From Piromyces finnis finn (Eukaryota; Fungi; Neocallimastigomycota): a stretch of 64,000 bases of DNA. Under the pieces are notes generated by a model that made no database searches, had not been told where the DNA came from, and was given only the letters and a program-made list of their open reading frames with translations. The stretch spans positions 383,868 to 447,867 of the forward strand of contig MCFH01000048.1 in the NCBI GenBank assembly GCA_002104945.1, given 5' to 3'. The position numbers and the translations under genes are program-made. Shown piece by piece: positions 7,446 to 60,829 of the stretch (position 1 is the stretch's first letter; every line of letters begins with the position of its first letter).

Positions 7446-7487
7446 AAGTTTTCGACCTCCACTTCGGGCCCTCACTAATAAATACTT
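7446..7487 (+). repeat. 42-bp direct repeat, left copy
   Basis: AAGTTTTCGACCTCCACTTCGGGCCCTCACTAATAAATACTT, identical to 9859-9900. Confidence 0.97.
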
Positions 7488-7498
7488 AAAAAAAAAAA

Positions 7499-8611
7499 AT
7501 GGTGCGTAATAAAGCAAGACAATTGGCTCAAAATTTAGGACGTAGAGCAAGAGATAGGATTGTACGAAGAAATCGTAGGATTGGCAATAGACAATTCGAA
7601 TCAGTTAAAGGAAATGCTGCTGGTACAATCCATACTACAACACGTATGATAGTACGTAGAACACCACGCGAACAACGATTTTTACGCAAATTGTTTAAAA
7701 CAAACCCTACTAAAAACAAATATATAAACAGATTTGGTTTTTCTTGGATGGGTGCTGGTGCAGCCTCAAAAACTATTTGGTATAGTGTTTGTCATTTAAA
7801 GTTCAATAATTTATGTACTTATTTACAAGGTCGTAAAATCTTACCGACACAGAGTATATAAGGGGTTTCTGCTACAGTAACCAATGATAAAGCAGTGGGA
7901 AATTCCCCATCAGCTGGTATTTACGTTGGTAAATGTACATTCCATTACGAATTGTACAACCCAACTAATTATTTAATGACTGTATACATATACGATTTAA
8001 TTTGTAAATGTGATACACCACATCAAATAGCATATTCTGATGCTGGTAATGATGGTAATAGTGCCCCTGAAGCTTGTATGCAAAAGGGTTCAAAATCCAT
8101 GACCGATGGAGGTTCTACCCCAACATGGCAAATTGCAGACCCTACACTCGAAATGGGTACATATTGGAATACTGTTGGTATGAAACCAACGGACTATCAT
8201 TTATTTAATATGATTTGGAAAGTCAAAGGAATGAAAAAAATCATTTTACCACCTGGATCATCACACCATCACGTGGTTATATACAACCCAAAAAAGAAGA
8301 TAACCAATGCTAGTTTATTATACCCTAGAGAAACTAGACATACTAATAATAAAATGGGTATTGGTGGTATTACACAAGCAACTTTATTTGGTTTTGAAGG
8401 TCAAGTTGCAACTGAAGACAATCAACGTAGTGATGGTACAATTATAGGTACATTACCTGGTAAATTATTAGTTAAATGTATTAAAAAGGTAAATATATGG
8501 GATCTTCCATGTAACTATCAATCGGTAACATCTGAAGATGACTTAGTAGTATCATGGACTAAACCAACTATATTCTCTGATTTAGTAGAAGTCAATGCAA
8601 TGTCTACATAA
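7499..8611 (+). pseudogene. cap: CRESS virus 1 capsid protein (~370 aa, one in-frame TAA at 7859-7861)
   Basis: ORFs 7499-7861 and 7895-8611 are in the same frame. Arg-rich N-terminus (RRARDRIVRRNRR) is typical of ssDNA virus capsids. Position is opposite a Rep. Confidence 0.8.
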
Positions 8612-8612
8612 G

Positions 8613-8643
8613 AACACGTGACATACAACTAAGTTAACGTGTT
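8613..8643 (-). promoter_or_regulatory. Candidate origin stem-loop of CRESS virus 1
   Basis: AACACGT...ACGTGTT stem, extendable with a bulge. The loop reads TAGTTGTAT on the minus strand, a weak nonanucleotide-like motif. Confidence 0.35.
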
Positions 8644-8895
8644 TGATCCTTATGAGCCGCAGGCTCTAGACCCTGGCCGTTGATTATCACATGTTTATAT
8701 CTCATGGCGATCATGTGATGATCACGTAATGAGTCACACCCTCCCACTTATCCATAGCCAAGTGGTTCTGAGAGGATTGTTTCCTACTCTGGACGGACGG
8801 CTCTGGGGGAGTAGGAGGAACAGATTTTTTTATTTTTTTATTTAACACAAAATGTATACAACACAAATGTAATGTAATGTAAAATTTAATAAACT

Positions 8896-9888
8896 TTATT
8901 TAATATAATTTATTTTGTAAAACAACACATGTACAATTTTTTTTAAAAAGTTTAAGTGTTCAATGTTTAAATTCTTATATAAATCTTCATTGGATAACCA
9001 AATCATTGGTTTTCCCCATTTAACAGTTCTTTTACCACGATATTTATCTGTGAGAGTAAACTGTTTTTGACCCCCAAAGAAACACTTCCAAGAGGGTAAA
9101 AACTTGGTGATATCACTAGAAAAATCGTCTAAAATAATGTAGTCGGCTGTATCATCCCAGTCGTCCATGTTTAGGAGGTTGTTAAAATACATATGTTTAC
9201 CTAAGGACCTGGCCCATTCAGTTTTACCTGAACGACTAGGACCTATTAAAATTAAAGATTGTGGTCTGGACCATTCTCCATATCTACGTAGATTTTCCAA
9301 CCAACCTTGAAAGTAGCAAAGCTTCCACATGGCCAACTCTTCTGGTAACTTAAAGTCACCTTGAGTGTATGGCGAGATGTATTCAGCTTTAGGTTCAGTT
9401 GGAAACATTTTTTTAATGTAAGCAATCCAATTTGAAAAGTGGTTAGCAAACCTGGAAGCAAAACCCTCTTCGTGGAGTCTAGCGATTACTTGATTTTGAG
9501 TCAAACGTTCACTGAGATAACGTTCCCAGTTTGGTTCTTTAGAATCATCACTTCCTTCAACTAATTCCTCTTTGTAATCAAAAGTACAAAGTGGTTCTTT
9601 ATCCTCTTTTGTGAGATATTTGATCATAGGTTCGATGCTTCTTGATCCATTTCGCTTTACAGTAGAAATATGTGGATGTAAACCACACATATCAAAGTTA
9701 AATTCGTTGACAGTTACTCTTTTAGTAAATCTAATATACACGTGAAAATGTCTACGACCAGTCACATGACCTACCTCTTCGGCTACCATTAATTTATCCA
9801 CATGAGCATCAGCAATTACTAATAATTGTAAACTTGCGTATAATTCTTCTTTTGTAATAAGTTTTCGACCTCCACTTCGGGCCCTCAC
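8896..9888 (-). CDS. rep: Geminivirus/genomovirus-type replication initiator protein (HUH endonuclease + SF3 helicase)
   Basis: Motif II HFHVYI, GRS-like FDMCGLHPHI, motif III YLTKED, Walker A GPSRSGKT, Walker B ILDD, TDKYRGK, motif C IWLSN. Motif I is not recognisable and the start (GTG) is uncertain. Confidence 0.95.
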   Translation of the reverse strand: MRARSGGRKLITKEELYASLQLLVIADAHVDKLMVAEEVGHVTGRRHFHVYIRFTKRVTVNEFNFDMCGLHPHISTVKRNGSRSIEPMIKYLTKEDKEPLCTFDYKEELVEGSDDSKEPNWERYLSERLTQNQVIARLHEEGFASRFANHFSNWIAYIKKMFPTEPKAEYISPYTQGDFKLPEELAMWKLCYFQGWLENLRRYGEWSRPQSLILIGPSRSGKTEWARSLGKHMYFNNLLNMDDWDDTADYIILDDFSSDITKFLPSWKCFFGGQKQFTLTDKYRGKRTVKWGKPMIWLSNEDLYKNLNIEHLNFLKKIVHVLFYKINYIK

Positions 9889-9900
9889 TAATAAATACTT
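9859..9900 (+). repeat. 42-bp direct repeat, right copy
   Basis: Identical to 7446-7487 and overlaps the GTG start called for Rep. Confidence 0.97.
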
Positions 9901-10730
9901 TATTCTAATAGTGGATTAGAATGGTGATATTTCTTTAATAGCTGCCGGAAGCACTCTACTCTCCTAATGAATATTTAAGAACTGATATGGTAGCTACCAA
10001 CTCTTAAATAACCTCAATAAATAACTGGAGTAAATATACTAAACTTTTATAATTTATACGCAAGCGTTGTAGCTGTCTAGTATAAACTACTTAATTATAT
10101 TATATTATTAAAAGAATAATAACTTTTTATATCCTTTTCTACTTCTAAGTAGTAAAGGAGGAAAATAACAATAAAACTTCTTAAAAATCGAAAACATTAT
10201 TCTTTCTATCCCCGATATCTCCACCAAGTTGATACGGGTTAATTTTATGTAGAAAGAATTAAACTTTAAATAATATATGTTTTATTAATAACTTTATTTA
10301 TAACGTTCCAATATTTCTATTTTGTCTAAATACTAAAACGTTCTGTCGTTGTCAAATATTAAAATTCTAACTAAAACAAGAAGCTATTTTTAATAATATT
10401 TGTTCTAGTCTATTTATACTAATGAGGCTTACTTAATAATTAATTGTCCAATTATTAGGCTAGAACTATATGGATCATTCATTTACATTATTCTTTTACG
10501 TTACATGATATTACATTTGTCGTACATTTGCATTACATTCTTATACATTGTAGAAATAATTAATATTATAATAAAACTATATAAATTTAATATTAGGAAA
10601 AATTACTAATATAATAATATGTTCAAGTCACATATTATTTTTATATCAATGACGTTAATTGTTCTTGTTACTCCTCGTGATTTGAACTTGTTGATGCTTC
10701 TTCTAAAGATTGATGGATGGATGATTGTTC

Positions 10731-12049
10731 TTATGTGGTTTCTTCTAATTCTTTTGTAATAATATTATTACAAAACCAAGTGTTTTTTGGGGTGGAACGG
10801 TTTTTTGGAGTGTAAAGGTCGTCTTCTCCTAATTCAATGATTGTCATGTTTTCCTTTATATATCTTCTACAAGAAGGGAATTGTACCTGGTCTTCAAATC
10901 TGTTATTGTTTATCCAGATTAAAGGCTTGCCGTTGTAGATTTCCATCTTTCTGACGTATTTGTCAGTGATAGTGGTTACTTTCTGTGAGCCGATCCAAGC
11001 CTTATAAAATGAGAGGTCTACTGGTTTTTCAAAAGTTAGTTCAAAATCGTCCATTATGTTGTAAGAGTCCTCATTGCTGAAGTTTAGGGCGTTCCAGATG
11101 TTCTTAAAGTAAGAGTAGTTTCCCAGAAGTGTTAATAAACTGGTTTTTCCTGAACGAGATTTTCCAGTTATCCAAAGACCTTTTGGGCGTTTTTCTAGCT
11201 TTGTTTTGTCTTCGTGATATTGTTGAATCCATTTTTTAAATAGTCTAAGTAGTGTTTTAATTCAATTGGGATTATAAATTTCTTTTCATAATCCCTTTCT
11301 GGTTTTAAACTCCCCTTTGATTTTACCATGGAATTGAGAAAAGCATTCCAATTTAGAAAGTTTTTAGCGAAGGCGACGTAAAGTTTCTTGCTTGCTTGAA
11401 ATTTTTGATTATTTCTTCTCTTGAAATATTTGGGTTTTGAATTAATTCATCACGAATGAATAAAGCCAATTTTTCGCTATTGTCTTCTTTTTCCTTTTTT
11501 GATTTTTTTTCAAGAGAGGTCATTTTTTCTTTGTAATCGAAGTTGTGAACTAACTGCAATGGTTCTTTTGTGACGTACTTTAGAATTGTTAATTCCGAAG
11601 CTGTTGCTCCATCTGGATGATGTTCTCCTTTATATCTTATGTTTGGATGTGCGGAGCTTATTTCTGAGTATGATGATGGGTTGTTTTTAAATAAGTCTTT
11701 TACGCCATGTTCCCATTCAAATGAGGAACAGAAACCTTTTTGAAAATATTTGCCTTCTGAGTTTTTTTTCCTTCAAAGCGTAAATCTTCTCTGGAATTTG
11801 AACGTCGAAGTGGCGGACATTTCTTGTGTAAAAACCTGATTTTTTTGATCATCTGTAGTTTAAGTAGCAGTGATATTGGTTATGAATTTCTCCTTGTTCA
11901 TGACCCTTTTCTTCGCTGATGAGATATTCCCATTGATTGTCTTCTTTAAGTTTTTCTTCTATTTTTTGAATTGTCAATAATTTGTTAAAGTCTGATGGAA
12001 AGGTTAGAAGTAAAACCTTTTTGTGATTTATTATAAATTTTGTTGACAT
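10731..12049 (-). pseudogene. rep: CRESS virus 2 Rep (one TGA and about three frameshifts, at least two in A-runs)
   Basis: Motif I LLLTFP, motif II-like QYHCYL, GRS RHFDV...HPNI, motif III YVTKE, Walker A GKSRSGKT, Walker B IMDD, TDKY, motif C WINN, assembled by hand across frames. Confidence 0.92.
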
Positions 12050-12062
12050 GGGTTTGGTTAAT

Positions 12063-12127
12063 GTGCGTAAAAAATGCGTAAACCCTATAATATTTATTTA
12101 ATATTATAGGGTTTACACATTACGCAC
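12063..12127 (+). promoter_or_regulatory. Rolling-circle origin: hairpin with TAATATTAT nonanucleotide and iteron-like repeats
   Basis: Perfect 17-bp inverted repeat 12078-12094/12100-12116 and outer GTGCGTAA/TTACGCAC arms. TAATATTAT at 12099-12107. TGCGTAA repeated at 12064 and 12075. Lies between the divergent rep and cap. Confidence 0.88.
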
Positions 12128-12291
12128 GCAATTTTTATATATATGTTTTTAATTTTTAAAATTTCCTTTTATGGTGTAGAATATTCATTTTTTATGATTT
12201 TTTTAATTGGTTAATTTTTCAATTTTTTTTCATATAAATAGGCCACATTCGCCAATTTTTTTGACCAATCTTTTTTAATAATTAATTTACT

Positions 12292-13185
12292 ATGTCATCC
12301 TACGGTAAATATAGTAAATATCGTAAGATGAATTATCCATCCAAAAGTGGATATGGATCATCCCTAAAGAAACGTACTTATTCACAATATCGCCAATCTA
12401 AGCAAGGAAATGACTCACTTTCTTTTGTTGTCAATTGTAATCATGTTTTTTCTGCTTTTTACAATCCTTCTGATGAATCTGGTACTGCTTGTATTAATGT
12501 ATGGGATGTATTACAACGCAATTCTAATTTTGCCTCTTTGAAAAACATGTATGATCAAGTTCGTATTGACGGTCTTCGTGTAAAATTATCTGTTACTGAT
12601 GCTGTTACATCTATTTAACAAATTTCTCAAGTTAAGAATATTATAATTTATACAGCTTGGGATCGTACTGGTTTATCTCGTAACTAATATGTTGCTTATA
12701 GTAACGGTAATGAAGTAATTGCTGACACTGATGCAGATTCTGATGATTTAATGTATTTCAGAACACGTATTGGTAGTGGTATTGTCAATGCTAATGGAGG
12801 TGATAAGAGTATATTAAATTCCTTCCAAAGATGGAGCAAGTATTTATCTATCTATCCAAATCTCTCTAATGAAAAGGGTCAATATGTAGCCACTTCTGAT
12901 ATTGAAAGATTTGTTTCTCTCAGTAATTCCAAAACTGGTGTCAATACTGTTTCTAATTTTTATAATGATGGATGTCTTTTAGATGCTATTAATTTCTCTA
13001 ATCCTGTTATTCCATTTGAAAGTTCATCTGTTAGATTCAAACCTTGTCTTCTTGTTGGTGTTTTCAGTAATCAAGTTGATACATCATCTGGTTTAATTAC
13101 ACAATATGGAGCTACTAGTCCAGTTATTTTCAATGGTGAATTTTCTATTTCCTGTACTTTCAAGAACCTCAAGGGAGCAAGGTAA
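12292..13185 (+). pseudogene. cap: CRESS virus 2 capsid protein, unspliced form (297 aa; in-frame TAA at 12616 and 12685)
   Basis: ORFs 12292-12618 and 12751-13185 are in one frame. Basic N-terminus, jelly-roll-like MYDQVRIDGLRVKL, AWDRTG, FKPCLLVG, ending TFKNLKGAR*. Confidence 0.8.
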
Positions 13186-13238
13186 ATATATAATAATATA
13201 TTTTATTTTTATTTTTTAAAATACTAATTTTTCATTAG
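13182..13238 (+). other. Predicted 57-nt spliceosomal intron joining the capsid to the downstream ORF
   Basis: Donor AG|GTAAAT, near-pure A/T body, branch-like TACTAAT at 13222-13228, acceptor CATTAG|C. Splicing removes the capsid stop and gives in-frame KGA-S-NSS-MGGND. Confidence 0.8.
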
Positions 13239-15932
13239 CAATTCTTCTATGGGGGGTAACGACGAAATGAGAAATAATCAAATTACCGTGTCAGCTAATG
13301 AACAATTAATGGAAACTGATCAAACTGTTACAGCTTCTGATATATCTTTTGCTAATTATAATGGACTTACTCGAGCAGTTGTAAATGCTGAACCTTCTGA
13401 AAATGATTATAAATATGTTGAAATTACTGATTTGGTCAACTCCCCTTATGTTTTAGATAACCCTAAAGGAAAAAGATATTGTTCCTCTGTAAGATTTAGA
13501 ATTAAAAAGGGTGTTGAATTGACACCAATACAACTTCCTGGTATTATTCTTGAACTGAAATCATCTGAAGCTCGTGGAACATGGGGATGGGGATTGTTTA
13601 AAACACCTGAAACCACAGATGCTACTGTTACTGATGAACTTGGTGTAAATAGTAATGCTACTTTAATTACTTGAGATCAATTTTCTCAAGGATAGGCAAA
13701 TCAACAAGTCTCTCTTAAGAAGGGAGAAGTTATTACTATTGTTAAATCCACTCCTAATGGTAATGAGGTTAAAACTATTCATAATGATACAGCTTTTGAT
13801 AAAGTTATTAAATTTGGAGAGAAGGTTCTTTATTTTGTTCAAAAAACTATTTCATTTGGTCAAAGAGTTGCTGATGTTGTTGTTAAAGCAATTGATGTTG
13901 TCAAGAAGGTTAAATGGGTTTGGACTGCTATTAAATTTAGTGTTTCACTTGCAGCTGTTATTATTGATGATAATGAAGTTTTAGTTGTTGATGAAAAGGA
14001 ATATATTGGTTTCTCTGCTGACACCTTTGATTTCATTTCTCTTGAAAATTGCTTTTTTTTTTTCTTTAGTGAAATTTCATCTTTTAGTCATGAAGGATCT
14101 TCAAGTAATGATTTATTACTTGATAATTCTCTTAGAATTACAAATAATGGAGTTTATTCTGTTAAGGATATTGTTAATTCATTTTCTTCTCATTCTGGTA
14201 GAAATTATGATGGTTGGAGTAAGGAATCTAATTTACTATTGATGTTGATGTTGGAGATATTACAAGAACCCACGGTGAACAGAATGTTGTAACTGTTAAA
14301 AAAGAAACTATGATTAAATCGGATAACGATATGGATGTTGCTTCTTCACGTTAATTTAATGGTCGTTATTTAATTACTTCTCTTAACGATACAAAAGATA
14401 TTATTGAAAACGAAGTTATTATGGGAAATGATGATGTAATGACTCTTGATGCTGGTGATGGAATATATCCTGTTGTAAAATATGATATTTCTAACGTTTT
14501 AACTAGAGAACATTATGATTATAAAGATATTAATGGACAGTGGGTTGAATTAAATAATAATCAACTCTATACAGTTCCGTTATATGATAATAGTAAGGGA
14601 TTTGTTGGTTCTAGGGAAGTTTCATTTAAAGTCAACGTTCCTCAAAATGTATTGAAGGAATATTTTTCGAAAGCCATTTCAAATAATGGATCTTTTACCA
14701 TTCGAGCACCTGATGGATTTGATGGTATTAAGGAAATTTCTTTAAATGTTGATGTTCCTACTAACAACAATAATGTTGTTAATCAAAGTAAAACAATTTC
14801 TGTTTCATCTAATGGTTCCGTTACTGTGGAACCTGATCAAGGATTTTCTGGTTTAAATAGTGTTATTATTAATATCAATGTTCAACCTAGAGTTCAGGAA
14901 CTTGAAGAAACACTTAATACAAATGATCTTTGGACTATTACTCCTGATGAAGGATATGATTATTTTTCTTCTGTTAAGGTACATGTTGATGTTCCTGAAA
15001 AATTACTTGAATTTATGTCAAATAAAAGAATTACCTCAAATGGTAGTTTGAAAATTGAAGATTTAATGAACGATGAAAATTCTGATGGTGTTTCTAAGGA
15101 TTCAACTGTTGTTGTTGATGTTCCTGTTCCTTCTGTTCAGAGTAGTAAATATACTACTTTGTCCAGTGGTGGACAATATGTTATTAGACCTAATTCTGGA
15201 TATGATACGATGTCCCAAGTTACAGTTAAAGTTGATATTAAAGATCAAGAAAGTCCTAATGTAGCTACACTTGAAGAAAATATTAGTTCTAATAATTCTT
15301 ATATACTTTATCCTCCTGAGGGATATGATTATTTATCATTCGTTAAGGTCGGCGTCAATGTTCCGGAAAAACAACTTAAAAAATTAACTCGAACTATTAC
15401 TTCAAATGGTTGTTAATGTAAAATCCATTCAATTTTAATTGTGATGGATTTGATGAAGTTGAACTTATGGTTAACGTTCAACCTAAGTTAACCAGCATTC
15501 CTGTTATGTATAGTTCGAATGGTACATATGTTCTTGACCCACCAACAGGTCACGATGGTTATAGTAAAATCAACGTTGAAGTTAACGTTCCTTATTCTCA
15601 TAATTTACCTAATTTGGATCATTTTATTTATGGAACTACTAAATGGTATTTAGCATTTTTCCAAGCTGGTACTTCTGATGGTAGAGTTTTTAATTTGAAT
15701 TCTGGACATACACTTATTAAAATTACTAAATTTGACAGTTATTATGATATTGAATGTGCTTCTGTTCCTCTTAATTACACAACAACTCACTGTTACTTGT
15801 TATAGTAATTCTATCTGTGGTGTGTTTAATGGTGCCCCTGCTAATTTTACCATGACAAACGCCTACAGTTCCGTATTGCCCAGGAAGTTTATTGAAATAT
15901 TTAGTAGTAACCAAATTAAGATAACTTCATGA
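13239..15932 (+). pseudogene. Capsid-fused fibre/spike-like extension (~900 aa) with ~9 repeats of consensus (I/L)xxNGxYxxxPxxGYDGxxxVxVxVxVP
   Basis: Continuous coding signal across ORFs 13249, 14421, 15467 and 15732. Interrupted by TGA 13672, TAG 13693, TAA 14352 and frameshifts near 14230, 15415 and 15790. Confidence 0.75.
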
Positions 15933-54123: not shown

Positions 54124-54752
54124 ATTTTTGTTGTTTGTCACAATAACATATATAAAAATTTAAAAAATTTGGACACATGGAAAAAATTAAAAATTTTTTT
54201 AAAATTTGAAAATTTGAAAATTTGAAAAAATTTATTTTTTAAATTTTTATTAAAAAATTTCAAAGTATAAAATTTCTAATATTTGAAATTATTAAATTTT
54301 TAAAATTATTAAAATTTTATTATTAAAAATTTTATTTTAAATTTATTAACTATTTACAATAATTATATTAATTATTAATTTATAAAAATTAAATATTTTA
54401 TAATTAGACAATAATTAATTAAAATTAAAAAATGTAATAATTAAAATTGTTCATGTATAAAAAGAACAAAAATTGACAAAAATTACGAAGCTTTAGCGTT
54501 AGTAATTTTTTAACTTAAAGTTAATAAAATTTATAAACTCCTATAAAACCTAAAACTTTAAAAATTTTAATATTTTTAATAACTTAATATATGCTGATAT
54601 TAAGTTATTGCTAAAATAAAAATATTATTTAAATTTCTTTATATAAATATTATTAGCTTTACGCCTTCAATAGGAAAGCGTATTATATTTATTAATTAAT
54701 ATAACTAGTGTGCTTACCACACTTTTCTTTAATAAAAAATCGCTTTTTGACA

Positions 54753-54763
54753 TTACTAACGCT
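54753..54763 (+). promoter_or_regulatory. Self-priming PBS
   Basis: TTACTAACGCT is the exact reverse complement of AGCGTTAGTAA at 54495-54505 in the 5' LTR. Confidence 0.85.
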
Positions 54764-54833
54764 TATTATAAAAGTGCGCTAAGCACCAATTAGTTAGTAA
54801 TTATTAATAACTAAATATAATAATTAAAGTTTA

Positions 54834-57800
54834 ATGGAAAAATCTCCACTTACACCTATTAAAGTGGATACAAAAGAATTTTTTAACCGCCTACAAACTA
54901 CCAAGAGAGAACGTTCCCCAGGAAATACTCCCGTAAGAAAATCAAAGATGCCTAATCATTCCGGACAAACTAATGCTTCTACGAGTAATCCTACTCAGAA
55001 GCCAACTACTAATGAGGATCTCAAGGCCCTCATTGAGTCTTTAACTGCTACCTTAACTGGGAATATCAATCAGTTAAAGGTTGATATTCAAGCTACCAGA
55101 AGGGAAAACGAAAGTCTCAATGATCGTTTGACTGTTTTGGAAAACTCTACTCAAGTTATTATGGGTAAGATGACTACCTTAGAAGTCAACGATGCTAGGA
55201 AAGACAATCAACTCGCTGATATCAAAGCTCATATCAGCAAAGCTACTCAAAGAGTTGATGAGTTGTCTACTCCCGTTACTCCTTCTGCTGCTACTCCTCA
55301 CGAACCTGACGGTGACGTCATCATGGGAGATGCTTCGCCTCCAAACGTCGCTGAAAAAATGCTTTCTTACTCAGGAGAAAGTATTCAACTACGCAGATTC
55401 ATCCGTCGATGCGAACACCACTTCTTAAGACACATCAAGTTCTATGGAAACAATGAAGCTATGAAAGTAAACTTCATTGAAGATTGTCTTACTGGTGATG
55501 CTGCAGATTGGTACGATGTTGAACAAGCAGACTTCCAGGAATCTCATCCGAATAGAAAGGTTCTTTACGAAGCTTTGAGTAAGAGATTCCTTAACCCGAA
55601 GGATATCAACATCACCAAAATCGACCTGATGAAGCTCAGACATAGTTGGGGAAAAGCTTCCGAATACTTAGGAAAATTCTCCCAATATGTCAAATTAATT
55701 GGATGTTCCGAAGACATTCAATTAACCATCATGCTTTTCCAAGTTAGACCTACCGTGAACCACGCCTTTAGTAAATTAACTTCGGATAGACAGACGTTAG
55801 AAGAACTGAAGAATCTTCTAATCAAATATGATGCTTCCAAGGATACTTATTACGATGATACTTTGGAAAGACAAGCTAACTACAAGGACAAAGAGCCCTT
55901 AATAGCTAATTTATTAGGTATTCATGGCAGTCTTTATTCCAAGAACCCTAACAAGACTAACAATCGTAATAACAACCAAAGGAATAACAATAACAACAAC
56001 CGCCCGTCTAACCAAAAAGGAAAAGGCTCCAGTAACTTGGATAGCAAGTCTAGTACCCAAAATCCCAATAAAAGTACTAAACCTAATAATGGTACTTCAT
56101 ACTCCAGCTATCTCTGTGAAGTAGAAGAGCAAGATATCTTAGAGCTACCAAATCCTGATCCGGAGAAGTATCCCATCGTGAAGACTAGTGTAAAAACTTC
56201 TAAAGGATCTAGACAGGTTATCACTTCGTCTCTCTTAGATTCCGGCTCTACTACCAATGTAATCCATATGGATTTAGTGAAGAAACTAGGAATTAAGACC
56301 ATACCAGCTGATACTGTTGTAAAGGTCATGGGAGGTAATGTCCTAATGCATTACATCACAGAAGAGTTCAACATTGTAATGAACTTATCTTCTTTAGGAG
56401 GAACCCGAGAAGAGGTTCGTCAATACAAACTTCGATGCCACGTAGCTGATCAGCTTCCTTCTTCGATTCTCCTAGGTTCTAAGTTCATGAAAACCAACTT
56501 CTTCTGTATCTTAACACAACCTGACCATTCCTTTACAGTTAAAATTGGTCCTGTTCCTTTCTCCAACCATAATGGATCTGAGATTAAATCTCCTAACTTT
56601 AGGAATGATTTGAAGAAATCTACACCTCTTCATGAAGTTATGTTTATCACAGAACTCGAAGACTCAAATCTGGATAAATCAACTTCCATTCCAACAGAAA
56701 CAGTCTTCATAGCCGATGATCAGAATCCTGAACTAGTAGAATCTATCAACGGTATACCTTTGGAATATGAAGATTTATATGAAGCCTTCAATGAAGAACG
56801 AGCCGATGAACTTCCTGAACATCGTGTATATGATTGTTCTATCGATTTGAAACCTAATGCTTCATTATTTTATGGGCCAATTTATCCAACTACTCCTACT
56901 GAACGTCAATTTATTAAGGAGTATATTGAAGAAAACTTGAATAAAGGATTCATTAGAAAATCCCGATCTCCTGCTGGACATCCAGTTCTACTCCAAGATA
57001 AGAAGGATGGTAGTCTCAGATTTTGCGTTGACTATCGCAAGCTCAACGACCAAACTATCAAGAATGCCTATCCGCTACCTTTAATCCTATCAGTCTTTGA
57101 ATCAATGAAAGGTGCTAACTATTTCACTAAGTTAGACCTCAAGTCAGCTTATAATTTAATTAGGATTAAAGAAGGTGACGAGTACAAGACTGCATTCAGG
57201 ACGGCATTTGGTCACTTTGAGTACTTAGTAATGCCTTTTGGACTAACTAATGCTCCTGCAGTTTTCCAAGCTTTCATTAATGATATCTTTAGTGATCAAA
57301 TTAATAAGTACGTTCAAGTGTACTTGGATGATATCATTATCTACTCCAAGACCCTTGAAGAACATGTTCAACATGTTAGAAATGTTCTTCAATTAATCAT
57401 TGAAAACAACTTAGTTGCGAAACTCAAAAAATGTGAGTTTCACAAAGCTGAAATCGAATTTTTGGGTCACGTAATCAGTAAGGAGGGAATCAAAACTGAT
57501 CCTCACAAAATTGAAGCAGTTAAGAACTGGCCTATCCCCACTACTGTGAAAGAAGTTCAGTCCTTCTTAGGGTTATGCAATTACTACCGTCGCTTTATCT
57601 CTAACTTTTCTAAAATTGCAAAACCATTATACAACTTAACTAAGAAAGGCGTCACTTTCATATGGACAGACGAGTGTAATAGAGCATTTAATCAACTTAA
57701 AGAATTTCTTACTTCAGCTCCAGTTTTACTTTGTCCTGATCACGATAAACCATTCATAGTTGAATGTGACGCAAGTGACTTTGCTATCGGGGGAGTACTT

Positions 57801-59717
57801 TCACAAAAAGGTGATGATGGAGACCTGCATCCAGTTTATTACTTTTCTAAAACCCTTCATGATGCAGAACTTAATTACTCTATCACCGAAAAGGAACTCT
57901 TAGCAATTCGTCAAGCTTTTATCGAATGGCGTCACTTACTTCAAGGTGCAAAATATCCTATTACCGTTTATTCAGACCATCGAAACTTGCTTTTTGCTAC
58001 CAAACCGCAACTTCTATCCCAAAGGCAAGCTCGTTGGCAAGAATACTTTGCTACCTTTGATTTCAAGATTATCTATCGACCAGGAAAGAAAAATGGTAAA
58101 GCTGATGCTCTCTCTCGTAGATCCGACCATATGCTCACAATTGGTGAGGATATAAGTGAATCGTCCTTACTTAAACCAACTCAATTAGAAGGATTCAACG
58201 AAGATGAATGCTACTTCTCTATGGAAACTAGCTTCATTGACGACATTAAGCAGTGCTACCTTCAAGATGAAACCGCTTGTCAGATTCTTAAGGATCTTGA
58301 AGTTCCAAATAGTGATCATCCTTGGATTCTTCAAGATGGCCTTTTAATAAGAACCAAACATCCGGAGCAAGTATATGTTCCAAGTCAACTAAGACTCTTA
58401 GTTATTAAGCTCAACCATGATGCACCCACTGCCGGTCACTTGGGAGTCGATAAGACTTATGACATTCTTAGACGTAATTTCTATTGGGTTAATATGTGTC
58501 AAGATGTCGAGTCTTATATTCGAAGCTGTAGTGTATGCAAGGCAATGAAAGCCGATCACCATGCTCCTTATGGTAATATGATCCGTGTCCCTCTTCCGGA
58601 ACTTCCATGGCAACACCTACAAATGGACTTTATCACGGACTTACCATCAAGACCTTGTAACTCTACCTTACCATTCGACTCTACCAATCCGAACCACCAT
58701 CAAGGTACCATAATGGTTACTACTTGCTACTTAACTAAGATGATACACTTAGTTGGGTTCAAACATTTACCCACTGCTAAGGAAACTGTTACTGCTTTTC
58801 TTAACCATATTTTCAAACTGCACGGATTCCCCTTATCTATTGTTACAGACCGTGGTACTCAGTTCGAAAGTCGTCTTTGGTCCCACTTGATGGAATTCTT
58901 TAATATCGATCACCACTCTGCTACTACTGGCCATCACCGCACTGTTGGACAAGTAGAACGTAACAACGACTACGTTGAAACTTATCTTCGTTGCTACTTA
59001 GCTCAATTTGATGATCTCAGTTGGATGGATCATTTGTACTTAGCTGAATTTTGCTACAACAATTCCATCCATGCTTCCACCAAGCAACCACCATTTCTCT
59101 CCGTTTATAATTATCAAGTTCACGCAAATCCACAAGTTGCAGACCTTGTTTCTTCTTTAGGACTTCATCCCCTCATCGATAGCTTCTCCCATAATTTAGC
59201 TGACCTTAAGCATACTCTCGAAGTCAGTCGTACCCGTTATCTCGATGAAAAGGATAAGCACCTTTATCACAACTTTAAGCGCTTCAAGGTCCACGATCTT
59301 GTTTGGCTTCGCAAACCCGCTAATTATCATCCTCCATTAGCGTTCAAGCTCCAAACCCGCAAGTATGGTCCATACAAGGTCACTGGTGTCGATGAATCTA
59401 AGCTCAACTACCGCCTTGATTTATCTACCTCACCTTTCCCTCGTGTCTACCCCGTATTCCACATCAGTGAACTCGAACCATATCATCCCACTCCTCACCA
59501 TCTATTGCTCAACCATCCCAACTCCAATGAAATCACCAAGATCCTTAGTTCTCGTAAATCGGGTCATTTTTACGAGTACTTAGTCACTTTTACTGACTTA
59601 TCTCAACGTTGGATCAATGCTGACACCATTGATAAGGATGACTACTACAGCACCCTTTTAGCTGATTACCAATGTCGCGCTTACCAACAATTCACCAATT
59701 CCGTCCCAGATTCTTAA
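54834..59717 (+). CDS. pol: Gag-Pol polyprotein, 1627 aa (gag, PR, RT, RNase H, integrase, chromodomain)
   Basis: PR LLDSGST, RT YLDD, RNase H CDAS/DHRNL, integrase HHCC (H..GH..CSVC) and DDE core, GPY motif RKYGPYKV, C-terminal chromodomain-like EITKILSSR...YEYLVTF...RWI. Confidence 0.97.
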   Translation: MEKSPLTPIKVDTKEFFNRLQTTKRERSPGNTPVRKSKMPNHSGQTNASTSNPTQKPTTNEDLKALIESLTATLTGNINQLKVDIQATRRENESLNDRLTVLENSTQVIMGKMTTLEVNDARKDNQLADIKAHISKATQRVDELSTPVTPSAATPHEPDGDVIMGDASPPNVAEKMLSYSGESIQLRRFIRRCEHHFLRHIKFYGNNEAMKVNFIEDCLTGDAADWYDVEQADFQESHPNRKVLYEALSKRFLNPKDINITKIDLMKLRHSWGKASEYLGKFSQYVKLIGCSEDIQLTIMLFQVRPTVNHAFSKLTSDRQTLEELKNLLIKYDASKDTYYDDTLERQANYKDKEPLIANLLGIHGSLYSKNPNKTNNRNNNQRNNNNNNRPSNQKGKGSSNLDSKSSTQNPNKSTKPNNGTSYSSYLCEVEEQDILELPNPDPEKYPIVKTSVKTSKGSRQVITSSLLDSGSTTNVIHMDLVKKLGIKTIPADTVVKVMGGNVLMHYITEEFNIVMNLSSLGGTREEVRQYKLRCHVADQLPSSILLGSKFMKTNFFCILTQPDHSFTVKIGPVPFSNHNGSEIKSPNFRNDLKKSTPLHEVMFITELEDSNLDKSTSIPTETVFIADDQNPELVESINGIPLEYEDLYEAFNEERADELPEHRVYDCSIDLKPNASLFYGPIYPTTPTERQFIKEYIEENLNKGFIRKSRSPAGHPVLLQDKKDGSLRFCVDYRKLNDQTIKNAYPLPLILSVFESMKGANYFTKLDLKSAYNLIRIKEGDEYKTAFRTAFGHFEYLVMPFGLTNAPAVFQAFINDIFSDQINKYVQVYLDDIIIYSKTLEEHVQHVRNVLQLIIENNLVAKLKKCEFHKAEIEFLGHVISKEGIKTDPHKIEAVKNWPIPTTVKEVQSFLGLCNYYRRFISNFSKIAKPLYNLTKKGVTFIWTDECNRAFNQLKEFLTSAPVLLCPDHDKPFIVECDASDFAIGGVLSQKGDDGDLHPVYYFSKTLHDAELNYSITEKELLAIRQAFIEWRHLLQGAKYPITVYSDHRNLLFATKPQLLSQRQARWQEYFATFDFKIIYRPGKKNGKADALSRRSDHMLTIGEDISESSLLKPTQLEGFNEDECYFSMETSFIDDIKQCYLQDETACQILKDLEVPNSDHPWILQDGLLIRTKHPEQVYVPSQLRLLVIKLNHDAPTAGHLGVDKTYDILRRNFYWVNMCQDVESYIRSCSVCKAMKADHHAPYGNMIRVPLPELPWQHLQMDFITDLPSRPCNSTLPFDSTNPNHHQGTIMVTTCYLTKMIHLVGFKHLPTAKETVTAFLNHIFKLHGFPLSIVTDRGTQFESRLWSHLMEFFNIDHHSATTGHHRTVGQVERNNDYVETYLRCYLAQFDDLSWMDHLYLAEFCYNNSIHASTKQPPFLSVYNYQVHANPQVADLVSSLGLHPLIDSFSHNLADLKHTLEVSRTRYLDEKDKHLYHNFKRFKVHDLVWLRKPANYHPPLAFKLQTRKYGPYKVTGVDESKLNYRLDLSTSPFPRVYPVFHISELEPYHPTPHHLLLNHPNSNEITKILSSRKSGHFYEYLVTFTDLSQRWINADTIDKDDYYSTLLADYQCRAYQQFTNSVPDS

Positions 59718-60829
59718 TCTGGACCCAACTTATTAGTACCCCACCTACTAGTGTCTACCACCCTTACTCCTTCACTACCCACCAATCGCCACTATCCCAC
59801 CTACTACCCACAACTCCGCTACCCACTAGTCGCCACCACTACAACTACCAACCACTATTCCGCTACCCAACCACCCTCTTTCGCCTTTGCCCTCAACCCT
59901 CAAATTTCGCAACCTTTTCCGCACCCCAAAATCCGCTTCCCCTCGAGTCATATCATTTCCCTAACCTTCACGTGTAGTCTCCATTTCTGAAGAATCCACG
60001 TGATACCCTCTCAACTTTTCTTGAACACTTTTACACTTCACTTTTTCAACACTTAGATTTTTTTTTCAAAAATTGAGAATTTCCATTTTTTGAAAATTCT
60101 CAAAATTTTTCTAAGTGTCGTGGAAGTGTCCATGTCCAAATTATTATGACGTGCCAGTGTCCATAATTTTTTGGGTCGTCCGGCGAAACGACCCTTAGGA
60201 CGGGCAGTGTCACAATAACATATATAAAAATTTAAAAAATTTGGACACATGGAAAAAATTAAAAATTTTTTTAAAATTTGAAAATTTGAAAATTTGAAAA
60301 AATTTATTTTTTAAATTTTTATTAAAAAATTTCAAAGTATAAAATTTCTAATATTTGAAATTATTAAATTTTTAAAATTATTAAAATTTTATTATTAAAA
60401 ATTTTATTTTAAATTTATTAACTATTTACAATAATTATATTAATTATTAATTTATAAAAATTAAATATTTTATAATTAGACAATAATTAATTAAAATTAA
60501 AAAATGTAATAATTAAAATTGTTCATGTATAAAAAGAACAAAAATTGACAAAAATTACGAAGCTTTAGCGTTAGTAATTTTTTAACTTAAAGTTAATAAA
60601 ATTTATAAACTCCTATAAAACCTAAAACTTTAAAAATTTTAATATTTTTAATAACTTAATATATGCTGATATTAAGTTATTGCTAAAATAAAAATATTAT
60701 TTAAATTTCTTTATATAAATATTATTAGCTTTACGCCTTCAATAGGAAAGCGTATTATATTTATTAATTAATATAACTAGTGTGCTTACCACACTTTTCT
60801 TTAATAAAAAATCGCTTTTTGACATTGTT

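Follow-up and report, generated by a model that had tools for sequence, protein, structure and literature searches.

Luteoviruses and poleroviruses make a major coat protein and a minor, C-terminally extended coat protein from one gene by means of a leaky in-frame stop codon, and in the Genomoviridae, a family of fungal DNA viruses, splicing is known in the gene for the replication protein (Rep) and not at the capsid end. In Orsay virus, a noda-like RNA virus of nematodes, the capsid protein is extended by ribosomal frameshifting; two papers describe the resulting CP-delta as a minor part of the virion, representing ~5% of the capsid protein and bearing a beta-repeat fibre (PMC5344674, PMC7565637). 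Densoviruses with a split VP gene (e.g., Acheta domesticus densovirus) are single-stranded DNA viruses in which two open reading frames (ORFs) are spliced into a minor capsid protein (PMC10267136). The subject of the present analysis is a 64,000-nucleotide (nt) stretch of the genome of the fungus Piromyces finnis (contig MCFH01000048.1), hereafter termed the window, and, within it, the remnant of an integrated circular Rep-encoding single-stranded (CRESS) DNA virus whose capsid gene ends at an apparent spliceosomal-type intron. All coordinates refer to the window, L001-L012 denote twelve related loci fetched for comparison, and P-numbers denote capsid-related proteins.

The window family would resemble Orsay virus in making its jelly-roll capsid in two forms, one plain and one bearing a long C-terminal extension encoded by the following ORF. 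However, Orsay virus is an RNA virus that relies on a frameshift, whereas the DNA viruses of the window family would rely on a spliceosomal-type intron and probably on a choice among several exons. The two window ORFs share one frame, and the 57 nt between them hold two stops as well as intron signals, which does not fit an Orsay-type frameshift. A comparison of the extension with Orsay delta gave no sequence likeness. Read-through of the luteovirus type involves a single leaky stop, whereas the window gap contains two in-frame stops (13183 and 13225), and the 58- and 112-nt gaps of relatives are not multiples of three. The densovirus addition is N-terminal (VP1u/PLA2) and belongs to a linear genome; that of the window family would be C-terminal and belongs to a Rep-encoding genome that is probably circular. 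The Genomoviridae share with the window element a geminivirus-like Rep and probably also a circular Rep-encoding DNA genome and a fungal host, and one paper reports a gemycircularvirus-like contig from a Pecoramyces transcriptome (PMC9501391). Genomovirid genomes, as described in a review, are ~1.8-2.4 kb long (or consist of 1.3-kb segments) and encode Rep and one capsid gene (PMC10224137); at no less than 5.3 kb, the element falls outside this range, as do its relatives at 5.6-7.4 kb or more. No published description of this virus group, and no CRESS virus with a spliced capsid extension, was found in a literature search that left out most subscription papers, in line with an earlier sequence-only reading of the window, which knew of no such virus. 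The string "splic" was not found in the available part of PMC11945456, nor "splic" or "intron" in that of PMC7493932.

The probable intron at the capsid end and its conservation

An intron at the end of the capsid gene, the removal of which would fuse the capsid to downstream coding sequence, is well supported by sequence signals and very likely real (Table 1). In the window, the last capsid codon (AGG, 13180-13182) is followed by TAA (13183-13185), the GTAAAT donor starts at 13182, TACTAAT lies at 13222-13228, and CATTAG lies at 13233-13238. Joining 13181 to 13239 preserves the capsid frame and yields Ser followed by NSSMGGND; these features, first described in the sequence-only reading, were all confirmed. 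That reading also described the 57 nt as A/T-only, and here the length is correct but the composition is not, since the gap is 93% A/T, with two G and two C and a longest A/T-only run of 41 nt. The AG at 13238 is the first one past the donor and, when acceptors are scored ad hoc, ranks first of the 116 AGs between 13186 and 15914, and the pattern GTA..CTRAY..AG arose in 0 of 200,000 shuffles of the 57 nt, a test devised after the sequence had been seen. The frame after the join is open for just 144 codons. The ~900 further codons originally claimed can be reached (~855 codons, to 15805, or 897, to 15932), but only by crossing three stops (13672, 13693, and 14352) together with frame changes that lie close to 14236 and 15415 and possibly to 15800.

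Table 1. Features of the integrated element, in window coordinates
Feature	Position	Strand	Remarks
Integrated CRESS DNA virus remnant	10621..15914	.	Span approximate, ends may be cut; contig of run X1
Broken Rep (endonuclease + helicase)	10731..12049	-	At least 4 pieces in different frames; tblastn
Hairpin between Rep and capsid, likely replication origin	12064..12130	.	31-nt arms, 84% complementary, 5 nt apart
Capsid gene, exon 1	12292..13185	+	297 codons; single jelly-roll with basic N-terminal arm; 53 homologues
Phase-2 spliceosomal-type intron, 57 nt (putative)	13182..13238	+	GTAAAT donor with capsid stop, TACTAAT, TAG acceptor; same position and phase in L001, L002, L004, L009
Exon 2, "domain A" (putative)	13239..14045	+	~270 codons, stops at 13672 and 13693; homology to L001 ORF2, P0106, P0108
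Second candidate splice acceptor, phase 2	14053..14069	+	T11-CTTTAG; boundary of domain A and repeats; use inferred
Broken repeat-rich coding region	14070..15805	+	~37-aa beta-type repeats and non-repeat end; candidate stalk/fibre

Donor, branch motif, and acceptor are conserved in position and phase among relatives, which was the comparison that the sequence-only reading had called for. Four of the twelve loci (L001, L002, L004, and L009) have GTAAGT beginning two bases into the last capsid codon, six are of the joined type, and two (L007 and L011) lack the junction. In L001, L002, and L004 this donor is the only GTAAGT/GTATGT hexamer in the scanned span. The donors are followed by A/T-rich gaps ending in an AG of the same phase (57 nt in L001, 60 in L002, 108 or 112 in L004, and 58 in L009). 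Counting the window, there are five cases, and in four of them an open frame of 126-332 codons follows the first AG located >20 nt beyond the donor; in L004 that AG leads to a stop, and a frame of 205 codons follows an AG 4 nt further on.

The capsid proteins of further relatives were surveyed for the trace that such a donor would leave. The capsid search returned 53 homologues, and 51 of the 54 proteins examined (the window's own included) have the end motif; 38 of these stop at the last column of the window capsid, Y-V follows that column in seven, a different short tail in three, and the remaining three belong to a distant clade. None of the 38 capsids that stop at this column has a terminal residue without a G-ending codon, against a background of 33%, and the terminal residues are of ten kinds. 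The Y-V proteins (7 of 45 donor-type close relatives) continue into an intron-like tail, as a GTATGT donor would give, and have no stop at the donor; the stop inside the donor is not universal. A wider set comprised 260 representatives at E <= 0.001, of which 150, at 50% identity, were examined: 123 reach the profile end, 12 lack the motif, and 84 are short, with 78 of the short ones compatible with a G-ending last codon. Short, Y-V, and joined forms are intermixed in a capsid tree of 60 chosen rows (unrooted, with no test of clades). No relative came from viral_contigs, whether the query was the capsid, either of two capsid alignments, or Rep, and neither the capsid nor the repeats matched GenBank phages. 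A search for longer proteins, which is a weak test, scored 7,998 candidates of 602-2000 aa against the close-clade alignment and yielded none.

Joined forms and candidate alternative acceptors

Sequences in which the capsid is already joined to downstream coding sequence provide a second line of evidence. The unjoined locus L009 and the joined locus L010 are 99.6% identical over 1,073 nt and diverge exactly at the base before GT, after which L010 continues for 328 codons into a repeat-bearing exon that differs from the exon following the L009 intron. P0125 (688 aa) is equivalent to the capsid P0123 (329 aa, 99.4% identity) plus the downstream protein P0124 (325 aa); the three share one 90% cluster, with the two parts called separately on contigs other than that of the fusion. 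A search for long proteins returned 29 of 525-956 aa that carry this capsid: 15 of the L012 clade, nine other direct fusions, P0110, two with an internal insertion, and two fungal gene models. Short-tailed joined forms also occur (L008, P0024, P0035, and P0039). Separately, P0111, P0112, and long representatives such as P0190 reach 440-555 aa through a large internal insertion and not through a C-terminal extension.

Downstream of the junction, domain A of the window is homologous to ORF2 of L001, the nearest fetched relative (E 2e-5), and to the extensions of the natural fusions P0106 (E 1e-7) and P0108 (E 2e-5), and the repeat region, which contains at least six units by a profile built from nine seed units of relatives, is homologous to L001 ORF3 (E 1e-31). 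L001 carries the two kinds of material as two ORFs, and the window AG at 14069 is located where L001 ORF2 ends and the second acceptor of L001 comes next. This AG ranks third among the 116 by the ad hoc score, and its T-run is the sole run of seven or more T in 12292-15914. The AG at 15320 ranks second but belongs to a GAG within a repeat unit and was rejected. Extra introns at 14236 or 15415 were rejected as well, since each of these frame changes interrupts a repeat unit and the sequence there does not resemble an intron.

A single donor paired with more than one acceptor appears to be the pattern of the family, given the 14069 site in the window, the phase-2 acceptors of L001 ORF3 (first Met at 322) and the last ORF of L011 (with TACTAAC; first Met at 206), each ranking first in its locus by the ad hoc score, and the tandem acceptors of L004 (1375/1379, reading TAG-ATAG) and L002 (3956/3960). 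The tandem sites are 4 nt apart, with the first leading to the capsid and a stop and the second to the fusion. In L003, L006, and L005 the stop and the next ORF are offset by 4, 4, and 5 nt, as expected from a tandem acceptor like that of L004, and the last codons of L005 and L006 are not G-ending, so these two do not represent the unspliced donor form. ORF4 of L001 and L002 was also considered as a capsid exon, and was treated as a separate gene given its early Met, TATA-like box, and lack of a conserved acceptor; this fourth gene (5661-7070 in L001, 5516-6937 in L002) encodes ~470 aa, is 74% identical between the two, and has no Pfam or PHROG match.

These observations are probably best explained by a splice switch yielding two or more capsid forms, in which a conserved donor at the capsid end lets one transcript give a short shell protein and one or more minor, C-terminally extended subunits, with the downstream ORFs serving as alternative 3' exons. 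The short capsid would arise by intron retention in the window, L001, and L009, and by use of an acceptor with an immediate stop in L004, L002, and the joined-looking L003, L005, and L006. Retention as the source of the major capsid, as first put forward, fits the former loci but is too narrow for the latter, for the seven relatives without a stop, and for P0110. In the window, the acceptor at 13238 would add domain A and, if one frame is assumed, the repeats (~1150-1190 aa in total), and use of the acceptor at 14069 would give a product of ~870-920 aa that has the repeats but not domain A; the ~1200-aa fusion of the sequence-only reading is accordingly an upper bound, and L001 splits the same material into two ORFs.

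Competing explanations

Several observations weigh against a splice switch. The counts of conserved donors are not independent because kin share donors. Among the 84 short representatives, the final residue is N or I in six and V in 35; V dominates the wider set, and its frequency may be structural. The first acceptor of L002 is outside the top five of that locus by the ad hoc score, and L010 contains one N and a frame slip just before its junction. L003, L005, L006, L008, L009, and L010 appear to be transcripts, since they start <=50 nt from the capsid ATG or inside the gene and lack Rep. A joined form need not be RNA, however: the contig on record for the joined P0107 is 12,372 nt long and may be DNA, and L012 (4,649 nt) is a DNA contig with a direct fusion. 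The 15 proteins of the L012 clade, of which 14 measure 857-956 aa and whose contigs reach 11 kb, are fused without an intron, so there is no obvious need for a short form; the P0110 frame continues across an intron-like segment; the fungal gene models described below are predictions; and the extensions matched nothing of named function in Pfam, PHROG, PDB sequences, or GenBank phages. The L012 contig is itself filed inside a bacterial metagenome-assembled genome, likely as a binning contaminant.

The main rival holds that the intron is always removed and that every subunit is extended (perhaps to be cleaved later), so that the 297-aa form is an appearance created by unspliced DNA. The intronless L012-clade fusions speak for this explanation, as do the many fusions of 370-640 aa among distant representatives, and P0110 and the 7 of 45 donors that provide no stop upon retention fit it as well; stops inside the gap carry little weight against it, as any A/T-rich intron commonly has them. 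However, constant removal does not account for the tandem acceptors of L004 and L002 that give a stop, for the product-like L003, L005, and L006, for the short-tailed joined forms, or for the presence of more than one acceptor-led ORF per genome (L001, L002, and L010/L011), and it is considered unlikely.

A less probable alternative, and a doubtful one, is that joined and unjoined sequences are different genomes related by intron gain or loss or by recombination, with frames such as those of L003, L005, and L006 joined by a ribosomal frameshift as in Orsay virus. The direct fusion on the L012 contig and the joined P0107 on a 12-kb contig are consistent with this, and the contig records from the Joint Genome Institute give no molecule type. 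Yet the sequences of L009 and L010 diverge exactly at GT, with the frame taken up again in phase 2, the offsets vary (4, 4, and 5 nt) in a manner that fits the tandem acceptors of unjoined loci, and L007 and L009 run into unrelated eukaryote-like coding sequence, which suggests transcript assembly. In both loci (957-1449 in L007, 1507-2081 in L009) this sequence follows the viral part on the opposite strand, and the assemblies are probably chimeric.

It is very improbable that the downstream ORF is a separate gene translated from its own ATG (13249 or 13267) past a plain intergenic spacer, since, although an ATG lies four codons past the acceptor in the window and three in L006, gene callers list P0121 and P0124 separately, and a free protein might be made alongside the fusion, as may be the case for delta in Orsay virus, the ATG at 13249 (whose conservation would have spoken for a separate gene) is not conserved, with the first Met lying anywhere from 3 to 322 codons past the acceptor across loci (at 123-322 in L003, L005, L011, and L001 ORF3), the conserved start of domain A precedes the first Met of both L001 and L009, and homologues are fused to the capsid in P0106, P0108, and P0125.

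The integrated copy, its proteins, and the virus group

The window is highly A/T-rich and contains many remains of long terminal repeat (LTR) retroelements and AAT microsatellites, and no host gene was recognised among its listed ORFs. One contig of run X1 (5,294 nt), which may come from the source sample of the window sequence, matches 10621-15914 with 0 differences and 0 gaps, and short repeat-like contigs heap on both flanks; this exact match makes sequencing or assembly error an unlikely cause of the stops and frame changes. The copy is a fossil, unable to make the capsid or extension proteins now, because the capsid gene has two stops and the extension three stops and 2-3 frame changes. 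In this copy the 297-codon capsid reading frame is interrupted by TAA at 12616 and 12685. A further ~2.6 kb of coding sequence lies 3' of the capsid gene.

The window Rep matches the intact Reps of L004 (E 1e-35) and L011 (E 7e-22) in tblastn searches, and through them an HUH endonuclease and an SF3 helicase; it also matches the Rep of a neighbouring element, which in turn matches Pfam Gemini_AL1_M (24.4 bits), and the window Rep pieces have no Pfam match above cut-off. The hairpin contains TAATATTAT at 12099-12107, presumably a counterpart of the geminivirus nonanucleotide, which it resembles, and L001 and L002 carry TAGTATTAC at the corresponding place. Together with the single jelly-roll capsid, the Rep and the origin hairpin with its nonanucleotide are the features of Cressdnaviricota. 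A 141-nt terminal repeat in L004 points to a circular genome; the window copy itself is integrated. The L001 Rep matches Viral_Rep, and that of the window only the gemini-like group. The same capsid family is thus found with two unrelated Reps, circovirus-like (L001 191-1633, L002 171-1559) and gemini-like (window, L004, L011), which suggests Rep swapping.

A second integrated CRESS element lies ~700 nt from the first (7448-9900), with a different capsid-like gene (7501-8611, + strand, a single TAA at 7859) convergent with a nearly intact gemini-like Rep (9915-8896, - strand), and is flanked by a 40-nt direct repeat (7448-7487 / 9861-9900). Elsewhere in the window (54136-60826), a retrotransposon ORF of 1,629 uninterrupted codons (54828-59717, - strand) lies between two identical 619-nt repeats; this LTR element is young and possibly intact.

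The capsid model has a jelly-roll fold (mean predicted local distance difference test, pLDDT, 84) and matches CRESS capsids and solved jelly-rolls, including 6rpl (Z 9.8, root-mean-square deviation 4.2, 168 residues aligned) and the Orsay capsid 4nwv_C (Z 9.8, 3.5, 155 aligned), with which many other jelly-rolls tie. Among the top three structural matches are the unclassified Cressdnaviricota capsids A0A7G8LJ22 (594 aa, E 2e-20) and A0A6M4B900 (771 aa, E 3e-17), which are both much longer than a bare shell (19-23% identity). The window capsid has no Pfam match, and a precomputed PF02443 assignment is present on some relatives. Residue 297 of the model, its last, aligns with Orsay capsid residue 214, and the Orsay spike-domain construct begins at residue 215 (PMC5344674). 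The join falls where the last jelly-roll strand ends, a site used by other viruses for the attachment of protruding domains; it is on this account plausible that the extensions face outward, and they may serve attachment or entry.

The spike or fibre role assigned by the sequence-only reading gained no support from family, structure, or homology searches. The extension scans gave one PHROG of unknown function for L003 and a Big_9 match for the window without a passing stretch, the ESM Atlas gave no usable match for two extensions, and the monomer model of the repeat region is of low confidence (pLDDT 37; the three-copy complex scored 0.00, and the alignment was not used). Because no library named a function for the extensions, a fibre or stalk is inferred only. 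Domain A includes a strongly amphipathic basic stretch at ~13790-13920 (moment 0.63 in a hydrophobic-moment scan), evident also in L001 ORF2, P0106, and P0108, which is a possible membrane-active segment.

Anaerobic gut fungi are the likely hosts. Gene model ORX78300.1 of Anaeromyces robustus (118-kb contig) combines the capsid with six repeats, OUM70096.1 of Piromyces sp. E2 (590-kb contig) has a junction at the same column and continues into a homologue of L002 ORF2 (E 8e-19), and a Pecoramyces gene model also carries this capsid. These models are distinct from the window copy, with ~30% and 24% identity for two of them and a difference at the junction for the third.

A minor extended coat is already known by frameshift, in Orsay virus, and by read-through, in luteoviruses; alternative splicing at the last capsid codon, with several exons to draw on, would be new for CRESS viruses as far as the literature found extends. 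If the splice switch is real, some ORFs now annotated by gene callers as hypothetical proteins in their own right are capsid exons. The integrated copies in three fungal genera point to the likely host of a widespread virus group. A broader picture, for which the case is evenly balanced, is a large, undescribed CRESS group of anaerobic gut fungi with a splice-controlled capsid cassette, in which one donor would serve any of several swappable exons, among them domain A and the repeat stalk, tandem acceptors (4-5 nt apart) or retention would set the share of plain shell, and mosaic virions would enter cells from outside. Most fungal viruses lack an extracellular route, according to reviews (PMC10224137), and capsid-borne extensions in viruses of rumen fungi would make such a route directly testable.

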